A stretch of 22,186 nt of DNA from Sandaracinaceae bacterium (GTDB taxonomy: Bacteria; Myxococcota_A; Polyangia; Polyangiales; Sandaracinaceae), in NCBI GenBank assembly GCA_044220955.1, contig JBGAQA010000104.1, positions 1 to 22,186 of the forward strand, given 5' to 3'. Below the pieces are notes generated by a model. That model worked only from the letters and a program-made list of their open reading frames with translations. It was not told the DNA's origin and searched no databases. How positions within the stretch are numbered: the stretch's first letter is position 1; every line of letters starts with the position of its first letter. Of the stretch, positions 8,556 through 10,911 are shown piece after piece. The position numbers and the translations under genes are program-made.

Positions 8556-9215
8556 ATGACCACCGATTTCACCCTCGTCGCGCTCCACGGCTTCGCCAGC
8601 AGCCCGCGCTCGCGCAAGAACGAGCACCTCCGGCCGCGCTTCGCGGCGCGCGGGATCGACCTCGTGACGCCCGACCTCAACCAGCCCTCCTTCTCCACGC
8701 TCTCGTTCGACGCGATGGTCCACGAGGTGACGCGCACCTGGCGCGCCCAGGGCGAGCGCCCGCTGCGAATGATCGGCTCGAGCCTCGGCGGCTACGTCGC
8801 CGCGCTCTTCGCGGCCACGCACCCCGAGCGCGTCGATCGGCTCGTGCTGCTCTGCCCGGCGTTCGATCTGTCGAGCCGCTGGCGTGACCTGATCGAGCCC
8901 GCGCGCATGGAGGAGTGGAGGCAGACCGGCGCCCTCGCGTTCGACGACGCGACCGGCCAGAGCGTGCGCGTGCACTACGGATTCTTCGTCGAGGGGCTCG
9001 ACGTCCCGACGTTCCCGCGCGTGACCTGCCCGACCATCGTGATCCACGGCCGGACCGACGAGACCGTCCCCGTCGCGCAGTCGGCGCGCTACGCGCTCGA
9101 GACGCCGGCCGTGCGCGAGCTCGTGCTGGTGAACGACGGACACGATCTGCTCGGCTCGCTGCCGGTGATCGACGCGGTGGTCGATCGGTTCTTGCTGGAG
9201 GAGCCGCCTCGATGA
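8556..9215 (+). CDS. YqiA/YcfP (UPF0227)-family alpha/beta hydrolase (esterase), 219 aa
   Basis: MTTDFTLVALHGFASSPRSRK; nucleophile elbow IGSSLGG; IIHGRTDETVP (Asp); NDGHDL (His). It is the real C-terminal part of track ORF 6090..9215. Confidence 0.88.
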   Translation: MTTDFTLVALHGFASSPRSRKNEHLRPRFAARGIDLVTPDLNQPSFSTLSFDAMVHEVTRTWRAQGERPLRMIGSSLGGYVAALFAATHPERVDRLVLLCPAFDLSSRWRDLIEPARMEEWRQTGALAFDDATGQSVRVHYGFFVEGLDVPTFPRVTCPTIVIHGRTDETVPVAQSARYALETPAVRELVLVNDGHDLLGSLPVIDAVVDRFLLEEPPR

Positions 9216-9709
9216 TCGAAGCCAAGTTCTGCCTGCGCTGCGGCGCGGCGCTCGTCCCGCACGAAGAGGAGGGCCGCCAGCGGCCGAAGTGCCCGACGTG
9301 CGGCTGGACGCACTACGGCAACCCGACGCCCGTCGTCGCCGCGATCGTGGAGCACAGGGAGAGCGACGGCGACGAGCCGCGCGTGATCCTCGTGCGCAAC
9401 CACGGCTGGCCGGCGAAGTGGCTCGGCATCGTCACGGGCTTCCTCGAGGCGGGCGAGACGCCGGAGGAGGGGATCGTGCGCGAGGTGAAGGAGGAGCTCG
9501 GGCTCGACGCGACGCTCGTGGGCCTCGTCGGCGTGTACGCGTTCACCCAGCGCAACGAGCTGATCGTGGCCTACCACCTCCGGGCCACCGGGCCGATCGT
9601 GCTCGGCGCGGAGCTCGAGACGTTCAAGCGCGTCGCGATCGAGAAGCTGCAGCCGTGGCCGTTCGGGACGGGGCACGCCGTCCGCGATTGGCTCGCGAAG
9701 CGGAGCTGA
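9212..9709 (+). CDS. NUDIX hydrolase with N-terminal zinc ribbon (NudC-like), 165 aa
   Basis: FCLRCG...CPTCG zinc ribbon; YGNPTPVVAAIV; Nudix box GFLEAGETPEEGIVREVKEELG. ATGA overlap with the hydrolase stop. Confidence 0.9.
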   Translation: MIEAKFCLRCGAALVPHEEEGRQRPKCPTCGWTHYGNPTPVVAAIVEHRESDGDEPRVILVRNHGWPAKWLGIVTGFLEAGETPEEGIVREVKEELGLDATLVGLVGVYAFTQRNELIVAYHLRATGPIVLGAELETFKRVAIEKLQPWPFGTGHAVRDWLAKRS

Positions 9710-9716
9710 GCGAGGG

Positions 9717-9772
9717 CGAACTCGGACTCGAACTCGAACTCGAACTCGAACTCGAACTCGAACTCGAACTCG
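9717..9772 (+). repeat. Hexanucleotide microsatellite (CGAACT)9, one unit CGGACT
   Basis: Read directly, starting 8 nt after the NUDIX stop. Confidence 0.95.
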
Positions 9773-10030
9773 CTGGGACCACGGCTCTCCCCTTCGGGGA
9801 TTCGCCTTGGATGAGGTCAGAAGTACGGGGCTCGTTCGGGGGACGGGCAGTGTGCCGTCGTGCTCGCGGGGCTCAACCCCGAGCCCTTCGGGCTCGCCGT
9901 CCTCGCAGTGCTCGCCGTGCTCGCCAAACGACGGCTGCGCGCGGCTCCGCGCTGCTCCGGGCGATCGCTTCGCGAGGGTTGAGCCCCGCTCCGCGCGACG
10001 GCGGTGGGGTGGTGCCCCCGAACGGGCAGA
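9771..10030 (+). ncRNA. Putative structured RNA leader of the four-helix-bundle gene
   Basis: Nested complementary segments 9830-9842/10015-10027, 9854-9863/9993-10002 and 9866-9879/9976-9989 (14 bp perfect). Local hairpins TCCCC-TTC-GGGGA (9788-9800) and CGAGCCC-TTC-GGGCTCG (9880-9896). Transcription is not shown. Confidence 0.55.
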
Positions 10031-10044
10031 ACGGAACGACAAAC

Positions 10045-10359
10045 ATGGCCCTCAAGGTCTACACAGACTCTCTCCAGATGATTCGCGACATGCGGACCAC
10101 GCTGAACGACATCGCGAAGCAGGACGCCGACCTGGCTCGGCAGACGCGCCGGGCGCTCACCAGCATCACGCTCAACATCGCCGAGGGCGAGGGGCGACGG
10201 AACGGCAACGCCCGGATCAGGTTCCAGACCGCGATGGGCAGCGCGAACGAGGTCCGCGCGTGCATCGAGACGGCGGATGCGCTCGGCTACATCACGGCGG
10301 ACGCGCGGATCGTCGACACGCTCGATCGCATCGCGCGGACGCTGAACCGGCTGCACTGA
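10045..10359 (+). CDS. Four-helix-bundle protein (23S rRNA intervening-sequence protein / Avd-like family), 104 aa
   Basis: MALKVYTDSLQM...DLARQTRRALTSITLNIAEGEGR...RFQTAMGSANEVRACIETADALGYI matches the family pattern (L.Q..RA..S...NIAEG; A.GS..E; GY). Confidence 0.9.
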   Translation: MALKVYTDSLQMIRDMRTTLNDIAKQDADLARQTRRALTSITLNIAEGEGRRNGNARIRFQTAMGSANEVRACIETADALGYITADARIVDTLDRIARTLNRLH

Positions 10360-10365
10360 GCCGGG

Positions 10366-10403
10366 CGAGGCCCGCGGTTCGTCGCCGCGGGCCTCGTGGT
10401 TCT
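10366..10403 (+). terminator. Strong hairpin after the four-helix-bundle gene, possible intrinsic terminator
   Basis: CGAGGCCCGCGG (10366-10377) / CCGCGGGCCTCG (10385-10396) form a perfect 12-bp stem with a 7-nt loop. The U-tract is weak (TGGTTCT). Confidence 0.55.
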
Positions 10404-10433
10404 CCTAGCGCGTCAGCTTCACGAGCACGCCGA

Positions 10434-10468
10434 TGCGGGCGAGGGCGAGGGCGAGGGCGAGAGCGAGA
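10434..10468 (+). repeat. Degenerate hexamer repeat (GCGAGG)n
   Basis: gcgggc gagggc gagggc gagggc gagagc gaga, ending just before the stop codon of the convergent gene at 10471. Confidence 0.85.
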
Positions 10469-10470
10469 CC

Positions 10471-10911
10471 TCACTCGGGCATCGGCCCGCCCGTTCCTCC
10501 GTCCGGGAACGGCTCCCGCAGCGTGAACGGGCCGCGCGGCTCGTTCGTGACGTCGATGATCACGCGGTCGTCCTCGATCCGCGCCTGCCACGGGAAGCCC
10601 TCGGCGATGCGCTCCTGCTCGAGCGGCATCCGCCCGAGCTCCAGCGGCGCGCTCCCTTCGCGCACCACCATCCAGCGGTGCTCCTCGACGTCCTCGACGC
10701 AGCGGCGCGACTGCTCGAGCACGGCCGCGTGCGCATCGAGCTGCCGCGTCTCGACGTCGGAGAACGGGCAGCGGGTCTCGTCGTGCGCGAGGCCGCTGCG
10801 CAGGATGAACACGAAGATGAAGATCGCGAACACCGCAGGCGCCGCGCCGATCACCACCATGATCGGCAGCCACCAGGGAGTCTTCTCCTTCTTCGTCTCG
10901 TTCTCGCTCAA
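10471..10911 (-). CDS. Hypothetical single-pass membrane protein, ~146 aa
   Basis: TTG start overlapping the trmFO stop (TTGA) with GGAG upstream; TM segment [26 protein letters not shown]; soluble domain with two Cys. C-terminal part of track ORF 10471..14109. Confidence 0.7.

Follow-up and report, generated by a model that had tools for sequence, protein, structure and literature searches.

Stand-alone genes of the PF05635 family are widespread and have no assigned role; Avd, the one characterised relative, is essential in diversity-generating retroelements (DGRs). Miniature inverted-repeat transposable elements (MITEs), mobile insertion cassettes and integron cassettes are small non-autonomous units found at many sites, attC sites having the consensus boxes RYYYAAC/GTTRRRY, while repetitive extragenic palindromic (REP) sequences and REPINs with RAYT, and the ends of IS200/IS605 elements, are intergenic, lie near gene 3′ ends and form single-stranded DNA (ssDNA) hairpins with conserved unpaired bases. 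Here we describe a PF05635 gene, gene A, and the cassette around it at positions 9710–10470 of contig JBGAQA010000104.1 from a Sandaracinaceae bacterium; the 22,186 nt analysed are referred to as the window, and the genome that holds it (G000) comprises 7.5 Mb in 301 contigs and is 88% complete. The cassette is a gene-bearing, non-autonomous insert of the IVP family and, judging from sequence, the window's version has lost one side of a cassette that in full has two genes and exists in many copies. No published description of such a cassette was found in the literature searched (mostly open-access full text, supplements excluded).

Avd, as described in PMC5758913, is a homopentamer of basic character whose binding to DNA and RNA has no detectable specificity; the homology of PF05635 to Avd is remarked in PMC10053308. 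DGR homing is reported to depend on a hairpin or cruciform in the DNA that has a GRNA loop (PMC3240598), and GRA triloops are described for archaeal DGRs in PMC4372165. By analogy, an Avd-like protein combined with such loops would have a DGR precedent, though direct contact between the two is not demonstrated there.

Complete copies of the cassette carry two convergent genes

G000 has 15 PF05635 matches, 14 of them above the cut-off, and 14 loci were counted, fragments included. Ten copies belong to the window's type A or to a sister type B, the proteins of which are ∼69% identical. Nine of these ten run through a shared hairpin into a convergent paralogous gene, gene C (∼41% identical to gene A), and the tenth stops at a contig edge. 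Complete copies are ∼1.3 kb long and consist of two convergent paralogs, each with a structured leader, one shared hairpin and direct hexamer arrays. Two were assembled end to end (C247 and C282; C-numbers are G000 contigs or the cassette copies on them, G-numbers genomes and L-numbers excised loci) and read array, leader, gene A or B, hairpin, gene C, leader, array, with 1,230–1,255 nt between the direct arrays. The arrays are direct in the complete twin copies C247, C282, L011, L061 and L062, and inverted only in some single-gene copies.

A panel of 41 related genomes, all kin and including G000, extends this picture. Convergent pairs were also seen in G003, G008, G032 and G034. Copies with one gene are frequent; their arrays are direct in G012 and inverted at several sites in G007 and G023. 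Other G000 copies (C36, C53, C117 and C241) carry internal deletions or frameshifts.

The copy in the window shares 91% identity with C159, and 86% with C247, over its leader, gene and 3′ part. Its homology to gene C ends at 10435, so that only the last 9–10 codons of gene C remain, the rest of that gene and its leader being gone. An initial annotation of the window had described a single-gene unit filling the gap between the NUDIX stop codon (9709) and a convergent stop (10471). The cassette does span this entire gap, and the 104-aa open reading frame (ORF; 10045–10359), assigned there to an IVP/Avd-like family, matches both PF05635 and TIGR02436. The outer hexamer arrays (∼9717–9774 and 10437–10467), the 12-bp hairpin (10366–10396) and the A-rich start of the ORF (0.26 A over the first 90 nt, against 0.16 in both neighbours) were likewise confirmed, as was the lack of a transposase or reverse transcriptase (RT) within the unit. 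The extent of the unit has to be revised, the full element having two genes and ∼1.3 kb. The features of the window copy and its flanks are as follows.

9212–9709, plus strand: NUDIX hydrolase gene, the left host flank, outside the element (PF00293, E 2.8e-15; orthologues in five of five congeners)
9710–9719, plus strand: 10-mer with the same letters as 10439–10448, overlapping repeat families D11 and D18
9717–9774, plus strand: left hexamer array of CTCGAA units, on tandem-repeat evidence
9771–9783, plus strand: 5′ arm of the end duplex in the initial annotation; its partners in the fold ensemble are the right array and a local hairpin
9775–10044, plus strand: structured leader of gene A, ∼270 nt, from folding and identity to other copies
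9788–9800, 9881–9895 and 9965–9975, minus strand: three hairpins with C-GAA-G loops on the template strand, of the DNA mini-hairpin type described in PMC13037366
9853–10003: conserved leader core, with covarying helices
10045–10359, plus strand: gene A, encoding a 104-aa four-helix-bundle protein (PF05635/TIGR02436)
10366–10396: 12-bp hairpin, from folding, common to both convergent genes in complete copies
10405–10435, minus strand: stub of gene C, its last 9–10 codons and stop, from homology to complete copies
10437–10467, plus strand: right hexamer array of CGAGGG type, its orientation opposite to that of the left array (complete copies have direct arrays)
10471–10911, minus strand: conserved gene, the right host flank, without a Pfam or NCBIfam match, adjoining the NUDIX gene directly in G003 and G004

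Read 5′ to 3′, the leader of gene A comprises a small hairpin, an outer helix (∼9830–9844/10014–10027), the conserved core and a purine-rich ribosome-binding region. Within the core, an invariant 2 × 3 internal loop, GTGC-TC-G (9860–9866) opposite C-TCC-GCGC (9989–9996), is accompanied by a 14-bp stem (9866–9879/9976–9989) and, at the top, by a variable set of hairpins in which loop modules recur. Folding of the cassette as a whole was better than that of all 20 shuffles. Scans for sigma-70 promoters and for U-tailed terminators gave none of either, an Rfam search returned nine weak matches, every one below the gathering score, and no rRNA match was found in 9600–10600. The minus-strand gene at 10471–10911 encodes 146 aa, overlaps the trmFO stop and is 69–76% identical in the five congeners.

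Several copies have features of their own. Deletions in L092 (C117), L090 (C241), L088 (C36) and L087 (C53) join distant parts of the twin, for example gene C to the start of leader A, and such internally deleted copies may record the deletion mechanism. The leader of L083 (C247, contig positions 46407–46593) has a 42-nt near-perfect palindrome in its variable top, with the core intact, and this insert is also present in sequencing runs X1 and X13. L061, L062 and L019 (G032) are compact twin cassettes with arrays that lack CG and leaders that are simple hairpins of ∼80–130 nt without the core motif. At L014, L044, L045, L046 and L048 (G012), another repeated hairpin-rich unit borders the cassette copies, an arrangement suggestive of a larger composite element; at L046, a gene for a Y1 transposase (G012 C49:286311) is less than 1 kb from the copy.

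Filled and empty sites

The genes flanking the window cassette have orthologues in five of five congeners and are side by side in four, and all four of these syntenic genomes are without cassette or array at the site. The stops of the NUDIX gene and its convergent neighbour are 8 nt apart in G003 and 3 nt apart in G004. Empty sites with the NUDIX gene abutting the 10471 gene, which the initial annotation had proposed to look for, thus exist, and the array, being absent there as well, had to arrive at the window site. Over the whole panel, protein matches were found in 26 of 41 genomes, with 1 to 32 per genome among the carriers, and near-identical cassette copies sit at separate sites in G012. 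The cassette is, we believe, very probably a mobile as well as a multi-copy unit. For C282, the left flank is not syntenic in five congeners. Contigs from four DNA sequencing runs include no piece spanning the stretch, and none joins across the cassette. The 10-mer shared by 9710–9719 and 10439–10448 is either a target duplication or part of an older, CGAG-oriented array split by the insertion; the two are indistinguishable within repeats.

The gap between the NUDIX gene and the 10471 gene holds a different repeat of ∼100 nt in G002 (L035, two copies) and G005 (L036, one copy), indicating that this convergent-stop site has taken independent insertions.

The encoded protein is under purifying selection

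Gene A scores 61.5 bits against PF05635 (cut-off 33.8, E 1e-16) and 60.3 bits against TIGR02436 (cut-off 24). The structure model of its protein (predicted local distance difference test, pLDDT, 94.5) has a four-helix-bundle fold like those of Xcc0516, BT_0352 and Avd, with template modelling (TM) scores of 0.81–0.85 to 2GSC and 2RLD and 0.73 to Avd (4DWL). The protein is basic (pI 9.6) and, like its solved relatives, is probably a pentamer. Among intact G000 copies, the ratio of nonsynonymous to synonymous substitution rates (dN/dS) is 0.14–0.22 within types A, B and C (15 pairs) and 0.29–0.47 between types A and B (12 pairs). We take purifying selection on dispersed copies that stand beside decayed ones to be the usual mark of a gene serving its element; a benefit to the host also fits such selection.

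The leader core covaries and its loops have a strand polarity

For the leader we aligned 25 cores, hand-picked from loci where the core motif was found. Paired positions account for 90.2% of 520 cells, compared with 70.0% after shuffling and 31–48% in slid controls, and two-sided changes occur in 94 cells as against 28 in shuffles; none of 500 shuffles reached either the pairing or the change level. The internal loop (GTGC-TC-G with C-T[CG]C-GCGC) is invariant across the cores while the flanking helices vary, an invariance that is partly built in at the anchor motif by which the cores were selected. A strict core-motif search of G000 gave five hits, all five at gene copies, and hence no gene-less leader copy among them. 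The initial annotation had proposed a structured leader of ∼200 nt; the structure is clear (RNA z-score −5.8 for 9825–10030), and the actual size is ∼270 nt.

Perfect triloop hairpins were then counted in 90 distinct leaders. On the sense strand, 90 of 129 read C-TNC-G and two C-GNA-G, and one of 73 tetraloops was in the cUNCGg register. The two triloop types together make up 115 of 2,133 genome-wide, in a comparison that used a longer stem threshold. With duplicates removed, there are 57 distinct TNC hairpins and 2 distinct GNA hairpins, and 15 of 25 genomes favour TNC while none favours GNA. It follows that the loops read GNA on the template strand of each gene, and thus on opposite strands for genes A and C. 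According to PMC13037366, only GNA made a stable mini-hairpin among GCNNNGC DNA fragments, the RNA counterparts being much less stable, and GNA-capped DNA hairpins occur in the ssiA and N4 promoters.

The isolated mismatches also differ between structures. Leader stems have 31 G-T and 31 A-C mismatches, and the 3′ hairpins 22 G-T and 5 A-C. The 3′ hairpin bias is that expected of RNA; the leader is without such a G-U strand bias.

Hexamer arrays accompany the gene

Arrays of at least five CTCGNN units number 193 in G000 by pattern and 174 once merged, and most are without a cassette. Of those with room on both sides, 41 of 121 lie within ∼20 nt of a gene 3′ end, compared with 144 of 2,977 random places. 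In the relatives, where array presence was judged from Tandem Repeats Finder (TRF) output, a 6- or 7-mer array lies no more than ∼600 nt from 26 of the 28 gene loci, the exceptions being L026 and L005, the latter with 53 nt of upstream room; of 20,000 windows of 450 nt drawn at random from G000, 201 (1.0%) meet an array. The array unit varies from genome to genome. Its CTCGAA form is rare in G000 (40 of ∼2,470 units) yet recurs at the left ends of C159 and C53, so this array likely travels with the element.

Across the 41 genomes, the number of gene matches correlates with that of 13-unit CG-period-6 matches (Spearman 0.79; 0.80 in the 32 genomes of at least 6 Mb). The median number of CG-period-6 matches is 3 in the 15 gene-less genomes and 407 in the 17 genomes with at least seven gene matches.

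The leader was considered as a template for the array unit and rejected: the unit present three times in the window leader differs from that of the adjacent left array, and other genomes join the same core to different units.

Some further features of the G000 repeats were noted. Contig ends coincide with 52 of 283 arrays, which probably break the assembly. At C255:15900–16250 and C110:814–1079, arrays are interleaved with spacer repeats (of ∼100 and 45 nt, respectively), and the C255 spacer unit contains a GAA-triloop hairpin. A second intergenic family has 28 members, all REP-like hairpins, of which some form inverted pairs and several have GAA/TTC triloops; examples are at C9:18702, C222:112858, C244:4179, C271:36014 and C299:12333; three members lie within 50 nt of a hexamer array.

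Search for a mobilising partner

The panel was searched for RT with PF00078, and likewise for the Y1 transposase. The completeness of the carrier genomes varies, and the results below mean ‘not found’, which is not proof of absence. RT was not found in G003 (81% complete, 8 gene matches), G004 (97%, 7) or G033 (92%, 11), and G014 has 11 RT matches and no gene match. The four RT matches in G000 are on C290, C263, C167 and C111, none of which is a cassette contig. We therefore rejected RT as an obligatory partner, as it was not found in three carriers and its counts do not track gene counts. The same applies to the Y1 transposase, not found in five carriers with at least seven gene matches, namely G007 and G023 (both 100% complete, in 1–2 contigs), G032, G033 and G018. 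G033 yielded neither enzyme in these searches. The integron integrase model TIGR02249 had no match in any genome, the controls likewise being without a match.

An autonomous partner flanked by arrays was not evident among the 15 array pairs of G000 that lie 150–2600 nt apart: three are cassette copies, and the ORFs listed for the others looked, by eye, host-like or spurious.

G000 has Y1/RAYT-like genes at L001 (1186–1902, on C77) and L002 (C231), the former inside a long inverted repeat unrelated to the leader. Read by eye, neither locus has arrays or the leader core.

A proposed working and its rivals

The observations to be accounted for are the insertion, the multi-copy state, the twin anatomy, selection on the protein, covariation of the leader, the polarity of its loops and the association with arrays. 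The best explanation as a whole, to which we give an even chance, is a selfish cassette that uses a template-strand DNA leader and host enzymes. The template strand of each gene's leader would fold as DNA, in single-stranded form or as a cruciform arm, and the invariant internal-loop modules of the folded strand would be bound by the basic, probably pentameric Avd-like protein. By analogy with Frpo, as described in PMC9849209, this strand could act as a single-strand promoter, a priming site or a strand-transfer site, with host recombination or repair enzymes cutting and joining. The arrays may offer slippage or homology handles for entry and loss, and loss of the cassette would leave solo arrays or short inverted stubs. 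With the GNA loops of the twin leaders on opposite strands, either single strand would carry one folded leader and a template-oriented gene. Among the parts of this proposal, a need for the protein in spreading is on balance probable, and the view that host enzymes rather than a dedicated partner do the chemistry could fall either way.

Several observations weigh against the proposal. As to movement, G000 gives no sign of it at present, its copies being only 74–92% identical in DNA; a target-site duplication was not established (the 10-mer repeat at the window cassette's ends lies inside arrays), nor was a catalytic partner found. Of the five sites at which G007 and G023 were compared, four hold a cassette in both genomes; at the fifth, G007 holds only short inverted array stubs and not a clean empty site, which fits interior loss or a gene-less precursor. 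The array correlation is among kin, with overlapping matches and with arrays beside genes counted in; the reversed GC pattern correlates too (rho 0.61), and G004 and G032 have many genes and few CG arrays. The core motif was not found in many loci, all of those in G032 included, and G032 leaders have no TNC hairpins. As to the strand, two columns of the core are almost invariably T-G in the sense orientation (21 and 23 of the 25 sequences), which on the template strand is a C-A mismatch. The RNA fold of the sense strand is sharply defined (the minimum free energy structure is also the centroid, z −5.8), while the centroid of the template-strand DNA fold is missing its inner modules. Of the 25 cores, 20 have the sense strand as the more stable RNA fold.

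The invariant sense T-G pairs and the sharply defined RNA fold are points in favour of a leader that is instead an RNA element on its own transcript, bound by the Avd-like protein either in autoregulation or as a ribonucleoprotein copied by an RT in trans. The template-strand GNA loops would then reflect folded cDNA, as in retrons, or be incidental. Set against this are the variable leader positions, which have no G-U strand bias, unlike the 3′ hairpin, and the loops, which are in the triloop and not the UNCG register. Avd belongs to an RT ribonucleoprotein (8UB7 and related chains) and RT matches do exist in G000, but the three best RT contigs listed, and C111, are not cassette contigs, and neither the three carriers in which RT was not found nor the RT-rich, gene-less G014 fits such a partnership. 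We regard an RNA leader as possible, though rather doubtful. The RNA-based mode suggested in the initial annotation is accordingly not favoured: the loops of the leader and the polarity of its wobbles speak for template-strand DNA. Both sets of evidence would be reconciled by a cruciform, or by an RNA that is copied into folded cDNA. For the leader itself we lean slightly towards action at the DNA level, and its reading as template-strand ssDNA appears to be new.

The gene could also be an accessory one of benefit to the host, for example in nucleic-acid binding under stress, that is passively copied through recombination or slippage between the abundant hexamer arrays, its protein taking no part in the spread. 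The 174 merged arrays of G000, mostly cassette-free, would suit such passive copying, but the four syntenic congeners have no array at the window site, where the array had to arrive, and gene-less genomes have few long CG arrays (the medians of 3 and 407 given above). Similarly, purifying selection fits a host function and most of the G007/G023 sites are inherited, whereas copy numbers from 0 to 32 among kin and the many decayed copies speak against it. On this evidence the accessory-gene explanation is improbable.

The initial annotation had the cassette's ends closed by a 13-bp pairing of 9771–9783 with 10395–10410. This pairing can be drawn, at −18.9 kcal/mol, but is no better than chance. 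A duplex at least as good as the best one between the end windows (−21.6) arises in 64% of 2000 dinucleotide shuffles and in 96% of 1999 genomic pairs, and in a local 13 × 16 search −18.9 is attained by 15% of 60 shuffles and by 25% of 60 genomic controls. In the fold ensemble of the cassette, no base of the 13 in the 5′ arm has its most probable partner in 10395–10410. Among six other copies the duplex energy is −17.0 in C159, where one A-U to G-C change counts in favour of the pairing, and −7 to −11 in the other five, in which the duplex is lost. The 3′ arm consists of the spacer, the stop and the last codon of the truncated minus-strand gene C. The inverted arrays of the window copy do pair across the cassette; this is not the layout of complete copies, whose direct arrays cannot close a duplex. 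After comparison with the shuffles, the genomic controls, the ensemble and the six other copies, we rejected the end duplex as an organising feature. What stands of the earlier model is a discrete inserted unit, supported by the empty sites, the 14 loci and the covarying leader; its closure by this duplex and its extent do not. A single-gene RNA closed in this way and excised like a 23S rRNA intervening sequence is thus very improbable, despite a duplex that forms in isolation and is retained in C159.

Should the selfish-cassette proposal hold at the DNA level, it would describe a mobile element spreading by means of a protein that is not catalytic, and one possible origin of the microsatellites between bacterial genes. 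A bolder version, which we think unlikely, is that the protein and the folded template-strand leader make up a minimal, enzyme-free self-propagating element that recruits host polymerase or recombination and, as a side effect, seeds and expands the genome-specific arrays, with the 23S rRNA intervening sequences and the Avd of DGRs as its domesticated or specialised offshoots. If the protein does drive its own spread and seed arrays, this would be a new class of element. Here the PF05635 gene has a partner structure with covariation, a predicted strand, sites that are filled in some genomes and empty in others and a genome-wide repeat family that follows its numbers, and so provides a testable lead on the stand-alone members of a family whose role is unassigned.

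Comparison with known systems

The element fails the defining tests of rRNA intervening sequences, DGRs, REPIN/RAYT systems and MITEs, although it shares features with each of several systems. ORF-bearing 23S rRNA intervening sequences have the same protein family and fold (2GSC, 2RLD), with a small gene in a structured, sporadic insert. In contrast to these, the cassette sits between protein genes, is multi-copy at unrelated sites, has two convergent genes and hexamer-array flanks, and lacks a conserved closing duplex. Compared with MITEs, complete twin copies are without terminal inverted repeats and no target duplication was established. The leader resembles attC in being a folded single strand with a variable top, and the window stem fits the attC boxes, but the boxes are not conserved across the 25 cores.

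Like REP/REPIN sequences and the ends of IS200/IS605 elements, the cassette is intergenic, lies near gene 3′ ends and bears hairpins. It differs in having its own conserved gene and in that the leader core was found only at gene copies in G000 (five of five strict hits), and the Y1 transposase was not found in two complete-grade cassette carriers. In the Frpo ssDNA promoters described in PMC9849209, too, a gene is closely preceded by a long imperfect stem-loop, which there folds as ssDNA, and the ssiA and N4 promoters share GNA-capped hairpins with the cassette leader (as described in PMC13037366). The cassette differs in being chromosomal rather than in a plasmid leading region, and no sigma-70 consensus was found.

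DGRs differ in gene content, since no RT, template repeat/variable repeat (TR/VR) pair or target gene was present at any cassette copy examined and the element holds only two small ORFs. The cassette hairpins, moreover, precede the Avd-like gene and lie on the template strand. Common to both is the Avd-like basic four-helix bundle, and DGRs, going by the descriptions in PMC3240598 and PMC4372165, also make use of a GC-rich hairpin or cruciform in DNA, the loop of which is GRNA or GRA.

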